Positions 4,478 to 61,237 of a stretch of 64,000 bases of DNA are shown in pieces. Position 1 is the first letter of the stretch. Each line of letters starts with the position of its first letter. The stretch is from an uncultured Alphaproteobacteria bacterium (lineage in GTDB: Bacteria; Pseudomonadota; Alphaproteobacteria; Rs-D84): positions 10,862 through 74,861 of the forward strand of contig CALXMN010000003.1 in assembly GCA_944389495.1 (NCBI GenBank). The letters are read 5' to 3'. A model generated the notes under the pieces. It did no database searches. It was not told where the DNA came from and saw nothing but the letters and a program-made list of their open reading frames with translations. Both the position numbers and the translations under genes were made by a program.

Positions 4478-4759
4478 TTACTGCATTGCACACGCGTTGG
4501 TAAATTCATATGTCCCGGCGTTGTCTGTATACGGTGTGTTTGCCGGTGCGTACATAATGCACACCCCACTGGGGGCGGATACCAGGCAACTGGTTGCCGT
4601 TCCCAGTGACACATACCCGGTGGGACACGATCCATCAAAGATAGTCAGGCTGTAATTGTATTTGGCAATAAAGCCCGTAGGACACGATGTAGACGGCGCG
4701 GCGGCAAATGCGCCCACCGGCATACATATCATAATTAAAATAAATACCAATTTCATCAC
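4478..4759 (-). CDS. Family B small secreted Cys-rich protein (copy 1)
   Basis: Signal peptide, then AAPSTSCPTGF...GSCPTGYVS...CIMYAPANTPYTDNAGTYEFTNAC. It lies 9 bp downstream of family A copy 1. Confidence 0.6.
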   Translation of the reverse strand: MMKLVFILIMICMPVGAFAAAPSTSCPTGFIAKYNYSLTIFDGSCPTGYVSLGTATSCLVSAPSGVCIMYAPANTPYTDNAGTYEFTNACAMQ

Positions 4760-4768
4760 GGATGCCTT

Positions 4769-5194
4769 TTACATTAAACTTGAAAACGCTGCTGTCCGAA
4801 AAGATTCTGAGCTGGCGAATGAATACGCGCAATCATATGCACAGTCACTTGAACAGGTGCTGGCCGATCCGTATGAACCATTGTATAACCAGTAATATGA
4901 TACGGCTGGCCCAATCACTCTGCACCAACAATATTTATTGTTATTTAATGTGCCGCTAAGTTCCAACATATGTGCGGTTTCGCCGATGGTGCCGCCATTT
5001 TGGGATGAACATACGGCAATACCGGAAACATTGCGGCCACGGCACGAGTTTGCCCAATTATAACCACCGAGGCTTCCGTCATCTATCAGACAGGGTGTTT
5101 GTGGAATTTAAATGCATTGGGTAACGCCCTCGTTGGATGGTATTATATGCAGAATACATATTGCGGCGGTCGCGATTAGTATCTTGGATTTCAT
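4769..5194 (-). pseudogene. Family A secreted Cys-rich protein (copy 1), interrupted by one in-frame TAA at 5107-5109
   Basis: The reverse complement translates MKSKILIATAAICILHIIPSNEGVTQCI*IPQT...NNNKYCWCRVIGPAVSYYW...FRTAAFSSL. The stop replaces the Lys of the conserved VTKCVKL. RBS aggag precedes the ATG. Confidence 0.5.
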
Positions 5195-5300
5195 TTTTCT
5201 TATCTCCTGAGTTTCCTTATAAAAAACCACCAAATACATTGGTGGCCAGGAGATTCGAAACAATTACCAGAATTGTGTCACTTATTTGATATTCGTGACC
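5195..5300 (-). promoter_or_regulatory. Structured 5' leader of A copy 1: two hairpins, the second terminator-like (ccaccaatgtatttggtgg + T-tract) just before the RBS
   Basis: Same architecture as the leaders of A copies 3, 4 and 5. Confidence 0.4.
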
Positions 5301-5392
5301 CTCCTGACCAAAAAATCAGGAGTTTATTTATCGTCGTAATAAAAAACAACGCACACGCGCCGTTCAAATATCGACGCTGGTATTCGGGTTTC

Positions 5393-5423
5393 GACACCCC
5401 ATCAATGGAACACCCATTGACAA
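5393..5423. promoter_or_regulatory. Conserved palindromic upstream motif GACACCCCATCAATGGAACACCCATTGACAA (A copy 1)
   Basis: The same motif sits 150-230 bp upstream of A copies 3, 4 and 5. It has an internal inverted repeat, TCAATGG/CCATTGA. Confidence 0.45.
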
Positions 5424-5520
5424 TAATTATACTATCGCATTGCACAATTTAATGCAAGATGAAAAAGTCATAGTTCTTGATATGCTTATTATGTGTTTGC
5501 AAAGAAATTTGAAAACATAC

Positions 5521-14545: not shown

Positions 14546-14953
14546 ATGGGTGTTTTAAAGACTTTGTTTTTGCTTGTAATCGCAATTACATTCTGCCAAC
14601 CGGCGTCTGCCGTTACCAAATGCGTAAAATTAAATTCATCAACAACGTGTTCCGATTATTCGGGCGCATTCGGTCAATCAAATTGGTCCGCGACATGCGG
14701 TGGCATATCAATACAGGGTGTTACATTTTGTGGTTCGCAAAACGGCGGTTCAGTTGGTGCAACAACCGACGCCGTTACGACCAGTTCAACCAATAAATAT
14801 TGTTGGTGTAAAATGGTATCACCTGCGGTGTCGCGCTGGGTTTTCGCCGGCGCGGATGATCATTGCGCGTACCGTTGCGCGGACGCCTGTGCGGGCTTCG
14901 CTCCGGCCACTGAGACTTTCCGGTCTGCGTTGTTCTCGGGTCTCGGCGATTGA
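14546..14953 (+). CDS. Family A secreted Cys-rich protein (copy 2)
   Basis: RBS aggggaaaaataATG. MGVLKTLFLLVIAITFCQPASAVTKCVKLNSS...NKYCWCKMVSPAVSRWVF...FRSALFSGLGD. Confidence 0.6.
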   Translation: MGVLKTLFLLVIAITFCQPASAVTKCVKLNSSTTCSDYSGAFGQSNWSATCGGISIQGVTFCGSQNGGSVGATTDAVTTSSTNKYCWCKMVSPAVSRWVFAGADDHCAYRCADACAGFAPATETFRSALFSGLGD

Positions 14954-15136
14954 TATATACGTAAATGCGTATGCGAATGCATACGCCGGTAACAGGTGGG
15001 GGTATGGGGGCGGATTCTCCGCCCCCGTGGAAAACAGATATGATAAAGGGGATTTATATAAAATAACGTAAGTTTTTTACATCAGGTTCCCAGCCACAAC
15101 TGGGAACAGGTTGCATCGCCGTATGCAGTCGTCGCA

Positions 15137-15270
15137 CGTCTTTCTCTGCGGTGTCGCGCTGGGTTTTCAACAACGCGAACACGTCGGCCGGTTCTTGCGC
15201 GAACAACGTTCAGAACAATGCGTCTTTCCGGTCCGCGTTGTTCTCGGGTCTCGGCTCCTTTGACAGGAAT
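15137..15270 (+). pseudogene. Promoter-less 3' fragment of a family A gene (candidate silent cassette)
   Basis: Two conserved boxes, ctgcggtgtcgcgctgggttttc and tttccggtc(c/t)gcgttgttctcgggtctcggc, are shared with the 3' end of A copy 2 at 14815-14950. They bracket a divergent ~80-bp segment encoding VSRWVFNNANTSAGSCANNVQNNASFRSALFSGLG. It has no start codon and no signal peptide. Confidence 0.5.
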
Positions 15271-15498
15271 ATACAGTTTGGCCAACCTGCGGGACGGGTG
15301 CAACAGCACCTTTCAGATGATATTCATCTGTTTTGCCTGTTATCCAAGGCGGGGTGGTGCGACCTTTTTGGACGCGTAAAACGCGGCCTTAAAAATACAA
15401 TGCGCAGGGGACGTCTGGGTTAGTAGTCGTATATGATATGAATATTATGTCTGTTGTGACAGAACGCCCGGGGCGTCCAATGGAATATCGGGGGGAAT

Positions 15499-15825
15499 AT
15501 GACATTGGATGAAATAAATAACCTGAATGGCAATATGTGCCCGAGATTTTCAACGTTTGCTAGGGATAAATTGCCAATGCCCGGCAAGAAAAAACGCCTT
15601 GACGAGATATTAAACCGCGAAATCATCGTGACTGATTTCAGAATTACTAAATCTAAAAAACGTGATGGAACAGATTGTCTGCGATTGCAATTTATTATTG
15701 ATGGTAATGTCTGTGTTGCTTTTACTGGCAGTGCTGTTTTATCAGACCAAATTCAATCGGCCAAAGATAACATACCTTTTCGTGGAACAATTGTAAAAAT
15801 AGACCGATATTACTCTTTCTCTTAA
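15499..15825 (+). CDS. Hypothetical protein (108 aa), inserted between A and B of cassette copy 2
   Basis: ORF only. No recognisable motif. Confidence 0.3.
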   Translation: MTLDEINNLNGNMCPRFSTFARDKLPMPGKKKRLDEILNREIIVTDFRITKSKKRDGTDCLRLQFIIDGNVCVAFTGSAVLSDQIQSAKDNIPFRGTIVKIDRYYSFS

Positions 15826-15847
15826 CACAACAACAGGGGGTTAAATT

Positions 15848-16126
15848 ATGAAATATTTTTATGTTTATCTGCTTTTATTAATACCATCAACTGTATATGC
15901 CGCCGAACCATCAACATCGTGCCCATCGGGTTATGTCGCAATAGAAGAAGAATATATGGATATTGCGGATGGTTCGTGCCCATCTGGATATACATCCGCC
16001 GGTACGGCGGACAGTTGTCTGATTTCGTCACCCGCCGGTTCATGCATAATGTACGCACCGGCAAATACAGAATACAGTGATGATGTCGGTGCGTATAAAT
16101 TTATCGTTGATTGCCCGATGGAATAA
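15848..16126 (+). CDS. Family B small secreted Cys-rich protein (copy 2)
   Basis: RBS caggggg. MKYFYVYLLLLIPSTVYAAEPSTSCPSGYVAIEEEYMDIADGSCPSGYTSAGTADSCLISSPAGSCIMYAPANTEYSDDVGAYKFIVDCPME. Confidence 0.6.
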   Translation: MKYFYVYLLLLIPSTVYAAEPSTSCPSGYVAIEEEYMDIADGSCPSGYTSAGTADSCLISSPAGSCIMYAPANTEYSDDVGAYKFIVDCPME

Positions 16127-20634: not shown

Positions 20635-20722
20635 AATAAAAATATTATAAAAATAAATTTTATAAATTTTTATAAAAAAATAAGCATTACATTAATGTGC
20701 CATTGTGCGTTAATATACTTAT

Positions 20723-20750
20723 GTCAATGGGCGTTCCATTGATGGGGTGT
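20723..20750. promoter_or_regulatory. Conserved palindromic upstream motif (A copy 3): TGTCAATGGGCGTTCCATTGATGGGGTGT
   Basis: Same motif as at 5393, 27129 and 38208. Its orientation relative to the downstream A gene is constant. Confidence 0.45.
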
Positions 20751-20759
20751 GAAGACCTC

Positions 20760-20893
20760 TGCCTTAGCGTCGGAAAATAAGAAAACGTGCGGCGCGTGTA
20801 AATGCGCCGGTTTTAATATTCCGACGATAAATAAACTCCTGACCAACAATGTATTTGGTGGTTTTCTTATTCAGAAAAAACAGGAGTTTGAAA
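20760..20893 (+). promoter_or_regulatory. Structured 5' leader of A copy 3 with a hairpin before RBS caggag
   Basis: Contains ctcctgaccaacaatgtatttggtggttttc, related to the copy 1 leader. Confidence 0.35.
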
Positions 20894-21325
20894 ATGAAAT
20901 TAAAAATTTTGATTGCGGGCGTTGCGGTATTCTGTGTTATCGTTGCGCCGGCTGCGGCGGTTGTAAAGTGTGTAAAATTGACACAAAGTTCAACCTGTAC
21001 ATCAACAACTGCTAACAATTCTGGTCCAGAATGGACCGCAACCTGTGGTGGAACACCAATCAAAGGCATCGGTATTTGCAGCGATAAAAAAGGAAGTTCT
21101 GTCGGCTCAAAATCATCCAGTCTGACCATAGATTACTATACAGACTAAAATAAGTATTGTTGGTGTAAAATTATCAGTCCCGCCGTATCATCACAATGGA
21201 CATACGATGATTATAATTACACTTCGGGGGCTGATTGTGCGCGTGATTGTGCCTATGGCTGTGCCGCAGACATAGAAATAAATGCTGCGCTTCGTTCTTC
21301 GTTATTATATGGTTTTTCTGATTAA
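20894..21325 (+). pseudogene. Family A secreted Cys-rich protein (copy 3), interrupted by one in-frame TAA at 21146-21148
   Basis: MKLKILIAGVAVFCVIVAPAAAVVKCVKLTQSS...TIDYYTD*NKYCWCKIISPAVSSQW...AALRSSLLYGFSD. One frame throughout, with conserved motifs on both sides of the stop. Confidence 0.5.
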
Positions 21326-21341
21326 AAACGGGTAATTAAAA

Positions 21342-21617
21342 ATGAAAAAAATAATATTATTTTTGGCAATTGTGCCGTGTGCATCATTTGCGGCCGCGCC
21401 GTCAACATCGTGTCCATCGGGCACAATGGCCATAAACAAACAATATATGATAATTGGTAATACATCGTGTCCGTCGGGGTATTCATATGTTGGGGCGGCA
21501 TATACGTGCCTTTTGACATATCGCGGCAGTTCGTGTCTGATGTATGCGCCGGTAAACACGGAATACACAGATGCCGCCGGCACATACGAATATACCGCCG
21601 CCTGTCCATTGGAATAA
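21342..21617 (+). CDS. Family B small secreted Cys-rich protein (copy 3)
   Basis: MKKIILFLAIVPCASFAAAPSTSCPSGTMAINKQYMIIGNTSCPSGYSYVGAAYTCL...CLMYAPVNTEYTDAAGTYEYTAACPLE. Confidence 0.6.
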   Translation: MKKIILFLAIVPCASFAAAPSTSCPSGTMAINKQYMIIGNTSCPSGYSYVGAAYTCLLTYRGSSCLMYAPVNTEYTDAAGTYEYTAACPLE

Positions 21618-25796: not shown

Positions 25797-25839
25797 TGGT
25801 CGCCATTCCCCGTAACAACAAGTTTACCCCCAATCCTTG

Positions 25840-26235
25840 TCATTGCAAGGAAGGGCGCCCGGCAATCTTCTCTTGTCATTGCGAGCCACGTCAGTGGCGT
25901 GGCAATCCAGTAAATAAAAAAGCACTGCGGGCATCGCCCGCAGACATAATAAACCTGAATTGCTTCGTTTCACTCGCAATGACAATGTACTTATGCAGCC
26001 GTTGTTTCCTATAGTTGTACGACTTTTGTCTCCCCATTTGTCATTGCAAGGGAGGAGCACCCGGCAATCTTCTTTTGTCATTGCGAGCCACGTCAGTGGC
26101 GTGGCAATCCATAATACGGTATTTGCCACCGCAAATAAGTTTATAATAACTGGATCGCCACGGTCGTTACACTCCCTCGCGATGACAAGGGTTGGGGACA
26201 CGGGCGCCACCAGTGCGTCACGTTACGGGATGACG
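25840..26235. repeat. Array of MITE-like palindromic elements with terminal inverted repeats TTGTCATTGCGAG / CTCGCAATGACAA
   Basis: Several units, each with an internal hairpin (GCCACGTCAGTGGCGTGGC, CTGCGGGCATCGCCCGCAG). The array is reiterated at 36992-37300 and 52375-52470. Confidence 0.6.
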
Positions 26236-26238
26236 GAA

Positions 26239-26526
26239 TTATTCCAGTGGACAGGCCTGGTCAAATTCATATGTGCCGTATGTGTCTGTGTATTCTGTAT
26301 ATGCCGGTGCATACATAATGCACGCCCCAGACGGTGACGCCACCAAACAACTGTCCGCAGTGCCGACGGATGTGTATCCGGATGGGCACGAACCATCCGA
26401 TATTATTAAATATTCTTCTTCTATTGTTGCATAGTCCGACGGGCACGATGTTGACGGTGCGGCGGCAAATGATGCACACGGCACAATCGCCATAATTAAA
26501 ACCGATATTCGTTTCATATTCGCCAC
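26239..26526 (-). CDS. Family B small secreted Cys-rich protein (copy 4)
   Basis: MANMKRISVLIMAIVPCASFAAAPSTSCPSDYATIEEEYLIISDGSCPSGYTSVGTADSCLVASPSGACIMYAPAYTEYTDTYGTYEFDQACPLE. Confidence 0.6.
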   Translation of the reverse strand: MANMKRISVLIMAIVPCASFAAAPSTSCPSDYATIEEEYLIISDGSCPSGYTSVGTADSCLVASPSGACIMYAPAYTEYTDTYGTYEFDQACPLE

Positions 26527-26532
26527 CCCAAT

Positions 26533-26961
26533 TTAGTCAGACAGATTACTGAACATCGCGGACCGGAAAGACGCATTGTCCGCTGCGCGGTACGCACAGC
26601 TGTACGCGCAACGATAGCCACAATACGACGTCCCGAGGACGTTGTTGTACACCCAAGACGACACGGCCGGAGATACCATTTTGCACCAGCAATATTTGTC
26701 ATCAGTACCGCCACTAATTTCCAAAGCCGTCGCTGTCTGGCCAATTGAACTGCCACTTGTGCTGGAACATTGACTTATGCCCCTTATTGCGATACTTGTT
26801 CCACTGGTGGTACAATTTGATGTCCAGTCAACAACATTATACCCAGGCTCAACAAACGAACACGTTGTTGATGATGACAGTTTTACGCATTTTGTGACGG
26901 CCGCGGCCGGTGGGATTGTGGCCGCACAAATCAGACCCGCGATTAATATTTTTGATTTCAT
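26533..26961 (-). CDS. Family A secreted Cys-rich protein (copy 4)
   Basis: RBS aaggag. MKSKILIAGLICAATIPPAAAVTKCVKLSSSTTC...DDKYCWCKMVSPAVSSWVY...ASFRSAMFSNLSD. Confidence 0.6.
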   Translation of the reverse strand: MKSKILIAGLICAATIPPAAAVTKCVKLSSSTTCSFVEPGYNVVDWTSNCTTSGTSIAIRGISQCSSTSGSSIGQTATALEISGGTDDKYCWCKMVSPAVSSWVYNNVLGTSYCGYRCAYSCAYRAADNASFRSAMFSNLSD

Positions 26962-27078
26962 TGTGAACACTCCTTGTGTTTGGGTAAAACAAAAACCACC
27001 AAATTTAAGGTGGTTGGAGGTTCATAGCTATATCAGGTATAGTGTGCTTATTCTATATATTCGCAGCCCTCCAACCCG
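26962..27078 (-). promoter_or_regulatory. Conserved structured leader of A copy 4: long-range helix GGTTGGAGG/CCTCCAACC, then terminator-like hairpin CCACCTTAAATTTGGTGG + T-tract, then RBS
   Basis: About 100 nt, nearly identical to 38050-38165 upstream of A copy 5. Confidence 0.45.
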
Positions 27079-27128
27079 AAACAGTTGGAGCATTTTTACA
27101 TCTTGGTTTGATGCCTGAAAACGGGCTA

Positions 27129-27160
27129 TGACACCCCATCAATGGAACACCCATTGACAA
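27129..27160. promoter_or_regulatory. Conserved palindromic upstream motif (A copy 4): TGACACCCCATCAATGGAACACCCATTGACAA
   Basis: See 5393, 20723 and 38208. Confidence 0.45.
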
Positions 27161-27270
27161 CAGTTATTATAATCACAACAAAAATTCATTTGCAATATGA
27201 AAAATAAATCCTTTGATTTTAGTACGCGGTGCATATAAAATGTAAAACATAAATAAACAAGGAGTTGTCT

Positions 27271-28015: not shown

Positions 28016-28726
28016 ATGTGTAAAATGAACCGTTCTTGTATAAGATTTTTTGGATATATTTTTGCCGGGATTACGTCGCTGATGGGGCGTATTAATAATG
28101 CCACTGCGGGACAAATAGGTAATACTTACTATGAAACAATTGTAAACCAAGTCCAGGCATATGGTTCAAGGTGTCGCAGCATAATTCAAGAATTATGCCC
28201 CGGCGCATACTGCAACGATTTTTCTGTTGATGGTTATGAATGTCGCGGTGATGGTTCGGGAATAATTTGTAACTCGCAATGGGTTTTTGCATATCGCAAT
28301 GCCGATTATACAGATGATATGGGGGTATATGCTTCTGATTCAAACAGTGACGGATGTCATTATACGGAATATGGAATGTGGAACAATTTTTCGCATTATG
28401 AATTTGATTCGTGTGTATTCGGTTCATATATTACAACGTCATCTATCCCGTCAAGAATTTATAATCTTTCCCAGATGGAACAATATTGCGCCCCGTGTTC
28501 GGGCCTTGATTATCGTGATGGTCAATTTATTACATATGACCCCAGTGGCGCGTTAAGCAGCAACTTTTTTTCTTGGTATTCACTGAATACCAGTAATCCA
28601 AATTCCCAGGTTGGAATAACAACCTGTCGCGCAGACCAAAATTATAGCGCCGGGGAACTTGAATTTTCGGATTCGTCGGGGCACGGAACAATTACAATTC
28701 CTATAAGTTGCACATATGTTGAATAG
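28016..28726 (+). CDS. Large Cys-rich secreted protein (about 236 aa). Hypothetical.
   Basis: Hydrophobic N-terminus with many Cys. Shares the YTDDMGVY...YTEYGMWNNFSHYEFDSC motif with family B. Followed by a glycosyltransferase gene. Confidence 0.5.
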   Translation: MCKMNRSCIRFFGYIFAGITSLMGRINNATAGQIGNTYYETIVNQVQAYGSRCRSIIQELCPGAYCNDFSVDGYECRGDGSGIICNSQWVFAYRNADYTDDMGVYASDSNSDGCHYTEYGMWNNFSHYEFDSCVFGSYITTSSIPSRIYNLSQMEQYCAPCSGLDYRDGQFITYDPSGALSSNFFSWYSLNTSNPNSQVGITTCRADQNYSAGELEFSDSSGHGTITIPISCTYVE

Positions 28727-36991: not shown

Positions 36992-37300
36992 GGATTCATT
37001 GCGAGCCACGTTAGTGGCGCGGCAATCCTGTAAATAAAAAAGTACCGCGGGCATCGCCCGCAGACATAATAAAACTGGATTGCTTCGTTTTACTCGCAAT
37101 GACAATGTACTTATGCAGCCGTTGTTTCCTATAGTTGTACAACTTTTGCCTTTCCTCTTGTTATTGCGAGCCACACAGTGGCGTGGCAATCCATAATACG
37201 GTATTTGCCGCCGCAAATAAGTTTATAATAACTGGATCGCCACGGTCGTTACACTCCCTCGCGATGACAAGGGTGGGGGACACTGGCACCACCAGTGCGT
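36992..37300. repeat. MITE-like TTGTCATTGCGAG-type palindromic element array, part of the segmental duplication
   Basis: Homologous to 25869-26235, with point differences. Some differences are compensatory within hairpins. Confidence 0.6.
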
Positions 37301-37320
37301 CACGTTACGGGATGACGGAA

Positions 37321-37608
37321 TTATTCCAGCGGACAGGCCTGGTCAAATTCATATGTGCCGTATGTGTCTGTGTATTCTGTATATGCCGGTGCATACATAA
37401 TGTACGAACCCGCGGGTGACGAAATCAGACAACTGGTTGCAGTGCCGGCGGATGTGTAACCCGATGGGCACGAACCATCCGCAATATCCATATGTTCTTC
37501 CACCACCGTGACATATCCCGATGGACACGAAGTGGACGGCGCGGCGGCAAATGATGCACACGGCACAATCGCCATAATTAAAACCGATATTCGTTTCATA
37601 TTCGCCAC
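37321..37608 (-). CDS. Family B small secreted Cys-rich protein (copy 5)
   Basis: MANMKRISVLIMAIVPCASFAAAPSTSCPSGYVTVVEEHMDIADGSCPSGYTSAGTATSCLISSPAGSYIMYAPAYTEYTDTYGTYEFDQACPLE. Confidence 0.6.
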   Translation of the reverse strand: MANMKRISVLIMAIVPCASFAAAPSTSCPSGYVTVVEEHMDIADGSCPSGYTSAGTATSCLISSPAGSYIMYAPAYTEYTDTYGTYEFDQACPLE

Positions 37609-37614
37609 TCCAAT

Positions 37615-38040
37615 TTAGTCAGACAGATTACTGAACAACGCGGACCGTGTTGTTTCATTGGCACGGATAATGCTAGCACAATAATTACTACAAGAAGAGC
37701 AAGTCATAGCAGCGGAAACAGGGCCATTTATTACACCAAAGTATACCCATTGCGATACTGCGGGACTAATCATTCTGCACCAACAATACTCATTTGAATC
37801 AATTGAAGAAGCCATAGATAATGAAGTTGCCGTTGCGCCAAGGTCTTCGCCTTTTTGGTTGCTACAAAATGAAACGCCGCTGACAGACACGCCATTACAA
37901 GTCATAGACCAATCTGACCCTTTGCCGGAAACGTTTGAACACGTTGTTGATGACGTTAATTTTACGCATTTGGTAACGGCAAACGCCGGTGGGATTGTGG
38001 CCGCGCACAGCAGGCCGGCAATTAATAAATATTTTTTCAT
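37615..38040 (-). CDS. Family A secreted Cys-rich protein (copy 5)
   Basis: RBS aggagg. MKKYLLIAGLLCAATIPPAFAVTKCVKLTSSTTC...NEYCWCRMISPAVSQWVY...TTRSALFSNLSD. The ORF-track N-terminal extension is spurious. Confidence 0.6.
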   Translation of the reverse strand: MKKYLLIAGLLCAATIPPAFAVTKCVKLTSSTTCSNVSGKGSDWSMTCNGVSVSGVSFCSNQKGEDLGATATSLSMASSIDSNEYCWCRMISPAVSQWVYFGVINGPVSAAMTCSSCSNYCASIIRANETTRSALFSNLSD

Positions 38041-38049
38041 TCTAAACCT

Positions 38050-38165
38050 CCTTGTTTTCATTGCGAATGAAAAAACCACCAAATTTAAGGTGGTTGGAGG
38101 TTCATAGCTATATCAGGTATAGTGTGCTTATTCTATATATTCGCAACCCTCCAACCCGAAAGTGG
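38050..38165 (-). promoter_or_regulatory. Conserved structured leader of A copy 5
   Basis: Near-identical to 26962-27078. Confidence 0.45.
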
Positions 38166-38207
38166 AGGTGATTTTTTATGTCATCTCTGACAATTACAAA
38201 GGGCTAC

Positions 38208-38237
38208 TACACCCCATCAGTGAATACCCACTGACGG
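38208..38237. promoter_or_regulatory. Conserved palindromic upstream motif, variant TACACCCCATCAGTGAATACCCACTGACGG (A copy 5)
   Basis: The inverted repeat changes from CAATGG/CCATTG to CAGTG/CACTG. The palindrome is kept. Confidence 0.45.
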
Positions 38238-38366
38238 TTATTATAATATCGTGTTATGTTTATTAATGCAAGGGGTTAATACTTATACCCGACGTTCACG
38301 ATTACCGCCGAACCACCCCACAAATCATATACGTTGGAATAAAAACGCCGCCCATTTGGGCGGAAT

Positions 38367-52215: not shown

Positions 52216-52261
52216 GGCGTTTTAATTTAAAAATATATGGATATTGTGTTGTCTGATTCCA

Positions 52262-52360
52262 TTACCCGTGGGTTCGTGCATTATGTTTGCGCCGCCATAT
52301 ACAGAATACAGTGACAGCACCGGCACATATGAATTTACGGCCGCCTGTCCGCTGGAATAA
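52262..52360 (+). pseudogene. Promoter-less 3' fragment of a family B gene (...MFAPPYTEYSDSTGTYEFTAACPLE*)
   Basis: Homologous to B C-termini. No N-terminus or signal peptide. Confidence 0.5.
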
Positions 52361-52374
52361 CCATATCATACTGT

Positions 52375-52470
52375 GCCCCCATCTTTGTCATTGCGAGGGG
52401 GGGGCAGCCGGCATTTTCTCTTGTCATTGCGAGCCATCGCAGATGGCGTGGCAATCCAGTTGTCTGATTC
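52375..52470. repeat. MITE-like TTGTCATTGCGAG elements (two units) between the two B 3' fragments
   Basis: ttgtcattgcgagggg... and ttgtcattgcgagccatcgcagatggcgtggcaatcc, the second with hairpin GCCATC-GCA-GATGGC. Confidence 0.55.
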
Positions 52471-52489
52471 CATCATCCGCGGTATGCCC

Positions 52490-52558
52490 CGGCAAATACA
52501 GAATACACGGAAGTATCCAGCATATATGAATATACCGCCGCCTGCCCACTGGAATAGA
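52490..52558 (+). pseudogene. Second promoter-less family B 3' fragment (...PANTEYTEVSSIYEYTAACPLE*)
   Basis: Reading-frame match to the B C-terminal motif. Confidence 0.45.
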
Positions 52559-60159: not shown

Positions 60160-60475
60160 AATTATATTCCTGGCCTGGATTATAGCGCACACATTGCCCG
60201 TTTCAATAAAAGATTCCCGATAATAAAAACTTGTTAACGAAACACATTTGTGTTAACCTGTGCAACGACGTGGGGAATTCCCGCGTTGGGGCATCTAAAC
60301 CTCTATGCTGTGTGTCCGTGGGGACATAAAATACCCTCCAACTCTTTTGGTTGGGGGACGGTGAATATATTGAATAAACCGTGCTATCTCACAGTATATA
60401 GTTTAGAACCTCCAACCACCTGATTTTTATCTGGTGGTTTTTTCGTTAACAAAATCGAAAAAAGGGTTCTAAAAA

Positions 60476-61237
60476 ATGAAGAAATCACTAATGTTCATCG
60501 TGGTGTGTGGACTGACAGGGCGGGCACTTGCCGGGTCTTTAAGTTGCACATCTACATATAATTCTTTACCATCGGGCTATTCTGCCGGCGGATCTGGCAC
60601 GTCGCCCAGTCATTGTTTAAGTTCTTATACTGGTTACCAATGTAACAGCAGTACACGCCAATGCGACACGGTGCAAAATTGTACCTCGTGTACATCGGGA
60701 TATTACCCCAGCCAGATTACCGTCCCCAGCAGTGGTGTTTGTTCTACTGTTACGTTTTCTTCGTGTTGTACCCAGTGCTATGATTGCACCAGCGATACCG
60801 ATTACCAATATTACAGTCCCGGCTATCTGCGCAAAGCAAATCGTTGGTGTAATTGTGGTGTTTGTGAAACATCGTACGTCTATAAGTGCGCCGACGGATA
60901 CTATGGCAACCCCGGCGATCAGCCAACCGGATGCGAACCGTGCAAAGAATGCGAAAACTGTGAATCAGACACCGAATGGAAACCCCAACAAATAGAAGGA
61001 TGGGTTGTTAAAGTAACCAGAACTTGTGAATGTGATGGCAGCTGTGTGATAGATAAAATTAGCAATGCGTGTGCTGCAGGGTATTATATGTCGTCTGGTT
61101 GCACCCGATGTCCGGGCGACGGTGATTCGGCCGTGGCCAGCTGGAATATAACAGACTGTTTTATTCCGGGGGGACAAACTCTTTCAGATGAAACTGGATC
61201 TTACGAGTATATATCGGACTGCTATTACAGTTTTTAA
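60476..61237 (+). CDS. Large Cys-rich secreted protein (253 aa). Hypothetical.
   Basis: Signal peptide. Many CxxC / GYY repeats. The C-terminal ETGSYEYISDCYYSF is related to the family B TEY..GTYEF..C motif. Confidence 0.5.
   Translation: MKKSLMFIVVCGLTGRALAGSLSCTSTYNSLPSGYSAGGSGTSPSHCLSSYTGYQCNSSTRQCDTVQNCTSCTSGYYPSQITVPSSGVCSTVTFSSCCTQCYDCTSDTDYQYYSPGYLRKANRWCNCGVCETSYVYKCADGYYGNPGDQPTGCEPCKECENCESDTEWKPQQIEGWVVKVTRTCECDGSCVIDKISNACAAGYYMSSGCTRCPGDGDSAVASWNITDCFIPGGQTLSDETGSYEYISDCYYSF

Follow-up and report, generated by a model that had tools for sequence, protein, structure and literature searches.

Segmental gene conversion underlies antigenic variation at msp2/msp3 of Anaplasma marginale, an alphaproteobacterium like the source organism of the DNA studied here, and at pilE/pilS of Neisseria, vlsE of Borrelia and tprK of Treponema. 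In Helicobacter pylori, babA, babB and babC occupy paralogous outer-membrane loci that have their own promoters and share conserved 5' and 3' segments around divergent middles; intragenomic recombination between them makes chimeras and moves alleles from one locus to another, and strains differ in which allele stands at which locus. A pattern of this kind was found in a 64,000-nucleotide stretch of DNA (the window) from an uncultured alphaproteobacterium of the Rs-D84 lineage (contig CALXMN010000003.1). The window holds copies, numbered c1 to c5, of a cassette in which two genes, A and B, follow a leader RNA, and two of these copies, c4 and c5, alternate between near-identity and strong divergence. 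Segmental gene conversion within this family of leader-controlled A-B cassettes is very probably the cause of the mosaic. Similarly high confidence attaches to the explanation as a whole, in which c4 and c5 are both expressed and belong to a dispersed cassette family confined to Candidatus Enterousia and relatives within the order Rs-D84.

Comparison by blastn and global alignment showed that 25876-27160 (c4) and 36996-38240 (c5) are collinear, with the genes on the minus strand in both. Read along the plus strand, each block runs from an array of units resembling miniature inverted-repeat transposable elements (MITEs) through B, A and the leader to a palindrome; in gene order, it runs from promoter to leader, A, B and MITE-like array. 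This bears out the collinearity and element order given in a preliminary description of the window, which had called the pair a segmental duplication. Two collinear copies are indeed present, but that term is oversimplified, as the copies belong to a dispersed family and have a number of distinct converted tracts in common. Both the leader and the palindromic motif, listed there as separate elements, are present, but they are parts of one structured RNA.

Identity was strongly non-uniform along the two blocks, with values from 0.18 to 1.00 in 50-column bins and the highest values in the leader 3' domain, the B ends and the 3' untranslated region (UTR). Across the MITE array, the 3' UTR and the B C-terminus (25876-26325), c4 and c5 are ~92-100% identical, and a 36-bp indel within the array (26036-26071) gives the lowest bin, 0.18. 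Identity is ~70% in the B core (26326-26452), ~98% across the B signal peptide, the 15-nt intergenic spacer and the A C-terminus (26453-26565), ~28-56% per bin in the A core (26566-26856) and ~80-85% at the A N-terminus. The heterogeneity chi2 over the bins was 377, compared with a permutation mean of 25.9 and a maximum of 56.9 (0 of 5000 permutations), and uniform drift is therefore rejected. The earlier statement that the B termini are identical while central B and most of A diverge holds. The claimed near-identity of the leaders applies to the 3' ~91 nt (26991-27081, 99%) but not to the 5' half (27082-27160, ~60%).

A mosaic could also arise if a metagenome assembly collapsed repeats or joined reads from co-existing strains, and the organism is indeed uncultured, with several related strains co-occurring in the same sample series. 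The sequences of c3-c4 and of c5 recur, at 99.9-100% identity over 3.4-12.3 kb, in independently made assemblies from different samples and projects, so the blocks are not an artefact of one assembly; one of the matching sequences is a single 55-kb scaffold that bears both the c4 and the c5 cassette. An assembly origin of the mosaic is accordingly given very little weight.

For the c4-c5 pair, synonymous divergence (dS) rises from 0.07-0.18 at the two ends of B to 0.76 in its core, where the ratio of non-synonymous to synonymous divergence (dN/dS) is ~0.30 and does not exceed 1. In the A core, synonymous sites are saturated (proportion of synonymous differences, pS, 0.81), which makes this core uninformative for the dN/dS test. 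The synonymous pattern indicates that the cores are old and the tracts common to c4 and c5 young, and hence that the two cassettes are not a recent duplicate with cores driven apart by selection. A recent 1.3-kb duplication followed by strong diversifying selection on the mature-protein cores only would agree with the A and B cores being the most variable parts of secreted proteins, and with a family that is hypervariable across species. Since core synonymous sites have diverged as much as non-synonymous sites or more, this course of events is considered very unlikely, and the closest relatives of the individual segments speak against it as well. The core of B5 is nearer to c2 (77-90% identical in 30-nt windows) than to c4 (57-93%), and the ends of B5 are 97-100% identical to c4. 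Sequences fetched from related metagenome-assembled genomes (MAGs), most of them via B, are referred to by L-numbers (L001, L006, L121 and so on). The c4 leader and A gene match L006, L001 and L008 piecewise, and tiles of the A4 core match these in turn, so that segments of one core find their counterparts in cassettes of other species.

When the blocks were painted in tiles against the fetched loci, the tracts common to c4 and c5 were best matched only by each other. The identity of these tracts also takes in synonymous sites and non-coding DNA (the spacer between A and B, the 3' UTR and the MITE array), and together these observations argue against purifying selection alone. If c4 and c5 were ancient paralogues that had never recombined, purifying selection would have had to preserve the signal peptides, the ends of the proteins and the regulatory RNA. 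In favour of such paralogues, the signal peptides, the A and B termini and the leader 3' domain are also the most conserved parts family-wide; the reach of the identity into non-coding and synonymous positions, and its restriction to the c4-c5 pair rather than to other family members, leave them as improbable as a duplicate diversified by selection. The leader of c5 adds a further objection. Leaders of this family contain a long-range helix, P1, with strands P1a and P1b. In c5 (leader 38071-38234, minus strand; 5' hairpin P0 at 38217-38234), P1a is UAGUAG (38204-38209) and P1b is CUAUGA (38102-38107), and the two are mismatched because the 5' half is of the UAGUAG type and the 3' domain (38071-38161, 99% identical to c4) of the c4 type. 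The c5 leader is therefore a chimera, whose 3' domain breaks an otherwise preserved helix, whereas an allele from another strain has the matching version.

That allele, L121, occupies the c5 position between dcd and rlpA. It is 95-100% identical to c5 in the flank and the leader 5' half (40-nt bins) and 88-100% in the A signal-peptide region, and it keeps the matching P1b, CUACUA. Its A core is 100% identical to that of c4 (window 26892-26612), so that a c4 core stands at the c5 locus of another strain, an observation that diversifying selection on a duplicate would not predict. In further samples, the A gene of L121 stands at a third locus (MFS-SecB), where the leader preceding it is again a chimera. 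At this MFS-SecB locus, the leaders of L120, L122 and L123 combine P1a UAGUAA with P1b UUUCGA, of which 4 of 6 positions pair, and are another footprint of recombination that breaks P1. Thus, where the preliminary description had left gene conversion and diversifying selection as alternatives, conversion is favoured by the jumps in dS, the discordant relatives, the chimeric leader, the L121 allele and the divergent A proteins of positional orthologues in other species (below), and the dS values contradict selection on a recent duplicate.

Loci in related species show further replacement. At the c4 position (LemA-HU), the flanking proteins of related species are 92-100% identical and their A proteins only ~50% identical to A4, compared with 73% for the A protein of the non-syntenic cassette L006; in L046 (1797-4086), the A-B cassette at HU-LemA is inverted relative to the flanking genes. 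In a related species with a Dcd protein 86% identical, the dcd-rlpA spacer holds a leader and a small helix-turn-helix (HTH) gene, without A-B or MITE (L086, L087), from which it follows that the A-B genes of c5 are a lineage-specific replacement, probably anchored on the resident leader. Taken together, these results indicate an ongoing exchange of short tracts among the cassettes, which is what segmental gene conversion denotes.

Under segmental gene conversion, non-reciprocal homologous recombination would repeatedly copy short tracts between cassettes and so generate the mosaic. Homology would be anchored in conserved segments, namely the 3' domain of the leader, the stretches encoding the signal peptides, the A-B junction (A C-terminus and B N-terminus) and the C-terminal end of B together with the 3' flank; the old, divergent cores between them would be swapped as modules. 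Interactions with partner cells, with the host or with phages may be what favours the resulting variation. Several points weigh against this account. No conversion event was seen within a clonal lineage, and the direction and donor of the tracts are ambiguous. All sequences come from metagenome assemblies, in which strain mixtures could create chimeras, yet at least four independent assemblies agree. Finally, P1 is mismatched in some leaders (c5, L120, L122, L123); either it can be dispensed with or those copies are misregulated.

A profile built on the sequence of the 3' domain detected 70 leader instances when run against the window and the first 78 loci; four lie in the window (c1, c4, c5 and 60268-60446). 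Across the 70 instances, the elements follow a constant order: promoter, P0, UGGGGUG, P1a, a variable insert of 17-128 nt, P2, P3, P4, P1b, CCUCCAACC and terminator. In c4, on the minus strand, the P0 hairpin UCAAUGG-guguu-CCAUUGA, which is the palindromic motif, lies at 27139-27157. The sensor domain that follows (27022-27138) contains the UGGGGUG linker, P1a (27126-27131), a 35-nt variable insert, P2 (27084-27090/27069-27075), P3 with its conserved loop GAAUAUAUAGAAUAA (27045-27065), P4 (27038-27042/27028-27032) and P1b (27022-27027). P2 is of two types, CUCCAAC/GUUGGAG or CUCCUGA/UCAGGAG, and the P3 loop GAAUAUNNNGAAUAA is nearly invariant. P1 is perfectly Watson-Crick in 68 of the 70 instances, with ~16 different helix sequences. 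A reading of P0 as a DNA operator palindrome was set aside because many of its pairs are G.U on the sense strand only and because the site lies at the predicted 5' end of the transcript.

In a structural alignment of 55 sequences, 94.9% of cells were paired, compared with 73.3% after shuffling (0 of 500), and the covariation score was 0.563, compared with 0.169 for shuffled alignments and 0.05-0.10 for slid partners. Changes on both sides were seen in 24 of 35 pairs; for P0 these were 7 of 7, with 99% of cells paired. The helices were parsed from sequence anchors in Python, because MAFFT misaligned the 5' strand of P2, and an N-padded alignment was submitted, into which MAFFT left two inserted gap columns that mostly touch P3. 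Minimum free energy (MFE) folds of the c4 and c1 leaders recovered P0, an extended P1, P2, P3 and the terminator; their z-scores were -3.7 and -6.5. A search of Rfam 15, in which the T-box and all riboswitch classes were covered, placed the leader in no family at the gathering threshold, at which the window yields three tRNAs only; in E-value mode even the top hits stayed far short of it, isrK for example reaching 23.6 of the 50 bits required.

The expression platform of c4 (26986-27020, minus strand) consists of CCUCCAACC at 27012-27020, overlapping an intrinsic terminator stem (26994-27015; CCACC/GGUGG) that is followed by a U-run. Alternatively, GGUUGGAGG, which comprises the 3' strand of P2 and its flanks, can pair with CCUCCAACC to form a 9-bp antiterminator, intact in all 70 instances. 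Changes in this helix track the P2 type, and beyond P2 one further position covaries (G-C to U-A, 8 instances). The leader is thus likely to work as a structured RNA that regulates in cis and can form either the terminator or the antiterminator. It may act as a transcription attenuator, in which the folded P1-P4 domain would lead to termination and the opened domain to read-through. That the four-helix domain senses a ligand or protein is a tentative suggestion. T-box identity was rejected, there being no Rfam match and no bulge in the antiterminator. A leader-peptide mechanism was likewise rejected by inspection: a short open reading frame (ORF) crosses P2 in c4 (MLQLFRVGG...), and its ATG is absent from c5 and other leaders. 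In leaders of the c1 type (window 5330-5400, minus strand; L003, L014, L018, L053b, L058), the insert contains a GC-rich hairpin with a U-run, such as GGCGCGUGUGCGUUGUUUUUU; it is nested in a longer stem and may be a second terminator-like element in the leader.

In all the sequence gathered, the leader precedes an A gene in 74 of 84 cases, a set that is biased because most loci were fetched via B. Of the rest, some stand before genes for different secreted cysteine-rich proteins (window 60476-61237; L003) and others before genes for small XRE-like HTH proteins of ~50-83 amino acids (aa) (L086 5240-5700, L087, L038 1813-2162, L015 5234-5508). The example in the window (60268-61237, plus strand) has a leader at ~60268-60446, with P1 UCUAAA/UUUAGA, and a gene at 60476-61237 that encodes a 253-aa protein with a signal peptide, 28 cysteines and CxxGYY-like repeats. 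Its C-terminus (SDETGSYEYISDC...) resembles the C-terminal motif of B, and it has no Pfam or NCBIfam match.

More speculatively, and with a probability that we put low, the leader could represent a new class of RNA sensor that switches on a variable surface-protein regulon, with cassettes rewired by recombination that mismatches P1. It would then be a riboswitch or protein-binding attenuator built on a P1-P4 four-way junction with the invariant GAAUAUNNNGAAUAA loop, and its regulon, in a gut bacterium that depends obligately on partners, would take in the A-B operons together with small HTH regulators and further secreted proteins rich in cysteine. If so, a P1 mismatch such as that of c5 would amount to recombination-based phase variation acting on an RNA switch. 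An equally minor place is given to the view that the leader is no sensor but a constitutive 5' UTR module, conserved mainly as a homology anchor for cassette exchange and taking the form of a stabilising 5' hairpin with a leaky terminator or of an independent small RNA. The MFE folds default to the terminator state, chimeric leaders with mismatched P1 persist, the controlled genes are non-metabolic and one conversion tract coincides with the leader 3' domain, all of which suit such a module. A purely recombinational role, however, leaves unexplained the compensatory changes in five helices and an antiterminator that covaries with P2 and outside it, and the invariance of loop L3 (13-15 nt) and of the junction nucleotides points to a specific binding partner. 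Against a regulatory leader stand the following: the antiterminator covariation rests on few independent events; the registers of P0, P2, P3, P4 and the terminator were chosen with structure in mind, which favours pairing, and P1 and the antiterminator alone were defined by anchors; and the genes controlled encode secreted and small HTH proteins rather than the metabolic functions typical of small-molecule riboswitches.

Gene A4 (26533-26961, minus strand) encodes a 142-aa protein with a Sec-type signal peptide, nine conserved cysteines and the motif YCWCKMxSPAxSxWV; A5 (37615-38040, minus strand) encodes 141 aa, and its core shows no DNA-level relationship to that of A4, nor did any of the fetched loci yield a close relative of it. 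Gene B4 (26239-26517, minus strand) encodes 92 aa with a signal peptide, five conserved mature cysteines, SCPSGY twice and the C-terminal motif YTDxxGTYEFxxxC, and a protein identical to it (P0121) is present in public assemblies. B5 (37321-37599, minus strand), also of 92 aa, has ends identical to those of B4 and a core closest to B of c2, and its codon 66 is Tyr where the family has a nearly invariant Cys66. The start of B had been placed at an upstream GTG ('MANMKR'); the ATG start (MKRISV..., 92 aa) is the most likely one, as in 97 of the 120 homologues listed. Neither A nor B matched Pfam-A or NCBIfam above the curated cut-offs.

An AlphaFold2 model of A, based on a 51-sequence alignment, was confident (predicted local distance difference test score, pLDDT, 85.6; predicted template modelling score, pTM, 0.76) and consists of a beta-sheet followed by two C-terminal helices. 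At a Foldseek threshold of E <= 0.001, the model matched nothing in the PDB (best E 1.9) or in BFVD, a set of predicted viral structures (best E 0.75), and the top-ranked TM-scores were ~0.2. A profile search found the A domain in 1338 cluster representatives, with two to six tandem copies in proteins of up to 6218 aa. Very large proteins with 3-6 tandem A domains are P0244 (4750 aa), P0250 (6218 aa), P0243, P0266 and P0374, of which P0244 additionally carries five Listeria-Bacteroides repeats and a C-terminal Endonuclease I domain, company that fits an extracellular or surface setting for the A domain. Joint function of A and B is supported by a natural B-A fusion protein, P0366, with 30 cluster members.

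To judge from their sequences, A and B are probably exported via Sec signal peptides as disulfide-bonded extracellular or surface proteins that act together, possibly as a complex on the cell surface. A role as surface or partner-interaction proteins is a plausible proposal that we hold at somewhat below even chance. The number of conserved cysteines is odd in both mature proteins, nine in A and five in B; one intermolecular A-B disulfide would fit these counts, and B5, with Tyr66, might fail to form it. Two reservations apply: the structure prediction for B was poor (pLDDT 46), and the localisation of A and B, their complex and the leader ligand alike rest on inference. Adjoining c4, at 28016-28726 (plus strand), lies a gene for a 236-aa protein with 13 cysteines and a C-terminal end (...SDSSGHGTITIPISCTYVE) loosely like the C-terminal motif of B and the 253-aa protein; it has no family match, and no leader was detected upstream of it.

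A typical cassette comprises a sigma-70-like promoter, a structured leader RNA of ~170-260 nt, A, and B 8-16 nt downstream, with a MITE-like array in some. In species-representative genomes, B-encoding loci number about 9-12 per genome, and among the 78 loci fetched from related MAGs, 56 contain an A gene immediately followed by B, in 57 cassettes altogether. Homologues of A (429) and B (232) all come from uncultured gut Alphaproteobacteria, named Candidatus Enterousia where they are named. Analyses of MAGs have described the genomes of the Rs-D84 lineage as mostly smaller than 1 Mb and as lacking the tricarboxylic acid cycle, respiration and standard nutrient transporters, and an obligate symbiont or parasite lifestyle has been proposed for the lineage (PMC12306168). 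Literature searches on Enterousia and Rs-D84 returned genome-reduction papers and no description of the A/B family or the leader RNA.

All five cassettes counted in the preliminary description are present, but the A genes of c1 and c3 are each interrupted by an in-frame TAA, and an insert of 894 nt separates A from B in c2, which leaves c4 and c5 as the only fully intact cassettes of the window. Cassette c1 (4478-5430, minus strand) has a complete leader (5223-5427), the interrupted A gene at 5194-4769 and an intact B gene at 4756-4478. In c2 (14546-16126, plus strand), A (14546-14953) is intact and B lies at 15848-16126, and no leader was detected upstream of A; the insert between them (14954-15847, plus strand) contains a fragment of the A C-terminus (15148-15252) and a 108-aa ORF (15499-15825) with no Pfam match. 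Cassette c3 (20711-21617, plus strand), which is covered at 99.99% identity by the independent assembly L079, keeps P0 and has a leader without P2 through P1b, the interrupted A gene at 20894-21325 and an intact B gene at 21342-21617. An altered genetic code was rejected as an explanation of the in-frame stops, both of which are TAA, one at a conserved Lys position (c1) and the other at a variable position (c3).

A promoter-like site and a full leader are found in c1, c4 and c5, with intact ORFs in c4 and c5. The c4 site, TTGCAA-18 nt-TATAAT (27166-27195, minus strand), has 10 of 12 consensus matches and ends ~8 nt upstream of the P0 hairpin; by inspection, c5 has TTGCAT-17 nt-TATTAT (38243-38271, minus strand), and related leaders have -35/-10-like hexamers at the same distance from P0. 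The MITE-like array 3' of B4 (25829-26197) consists of ~36-nt units with GTCATTGCGAG termini in direct and inverted orientation, and the array 3' of B5 (36992-37275) is 91-98% identical to it. These are short non-coding units with inverted termini in several copies, as in MITEs, and the arrays belong to the 3' tract common to c4 and c5. In the window, such units occur only 3' of B in c4 and c5 and at a fragment locus (plus strand), where they lie between two B C-terminal fragments (52250-52360 and 52480-52557). The arrangement of the fragment locus, 52250-52557, suggests breakage or recombination at the junction of the B 3' end with a MITE array.

Bacteria of the Rs-D84 lineage, Candidatus Enterousia among them, occur widely in the guts of humans and animals, have genomes smaller than 1 Mb and are thought to live off other cells; we know of nothing reported on their partner interactions. 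With around ten recombining cassettes per genome for exported cysteine-rich proteins, the A-B family is a prime candidate for contact or recognition machinery. It offers for study an uncharacterised domain with a confidently predicted new fold, its partner protein and an undescribed terminator/antiterminator RNA, and its natural alleles, with different cores at the same locus and with P1 intact or broken, are test cases for recombination-driven variation and for the function of the RNA.

The behaviour of these cassettes is of a known type, namely gene conversion at surface loci and an attenuator-like leader, while the parts are uncharacterised and the leader belongs to no described family. Small palindromic repeats and MITEs of bacteria include REP/BIME, ERIC and the Rickettsia palindromic elements, and the units found here resemble them in size (~36-120 nt), inverted termini, several copies and intergenic clustering downstream of genes, but differ in that those in the window are restricted to the 3' side of B in c4, c5 and the fragment locus. 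Like riboswitches and T-box, PyrR or TRAP leaders, the leader places a covarying multi-helix 5' UTR domain ahead of a mutually exclusive antiterminator and terminator, upstream of the ribosome-binding site. Unlike them, it is without a match in Rfam 15 and controls genes for secreted cysteine-rich and small HTH proteins rather than for metabolism or transport; its antiterminator, unlike that of a T-box, is a perfect helix without a bulge.

The likeness to msp2, pilE/pilS, vlsE and tprK is looser. A hypervariable core between conserved flanks and mosaics from several donors are shared with these antigenic-variation systems, as is a host-associated organism with a reduced genome; truncated or pseudogene copies (c1, c3, 15148-15252, 52250-52557), which might act as donors, are present too. 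In contrast to msp2, pilE/pilS and vlsE, no single expression site with silent donors was found, c4 and c5 both having promoter, leader and ORFs; there is also no homology to the proteins of antigenic-variation systems and no sign of programmed high-frequency switching. The closest parallel is the bab family of H. pylori, in which, as here, paralogues at separate loci have their own promoters, conserved ends and divergent middles, and alleles move between loci. The unit here differs from bab in being a two-gene operon for small cysteine-rich proteins (92 and ~142 aa) unrelated to Bab/Hop in sequence or fold, in its ~10 copies within a genome of less than 1 Mb, and in tracts that include a structured regulatory RNA and MITE-like repeats.

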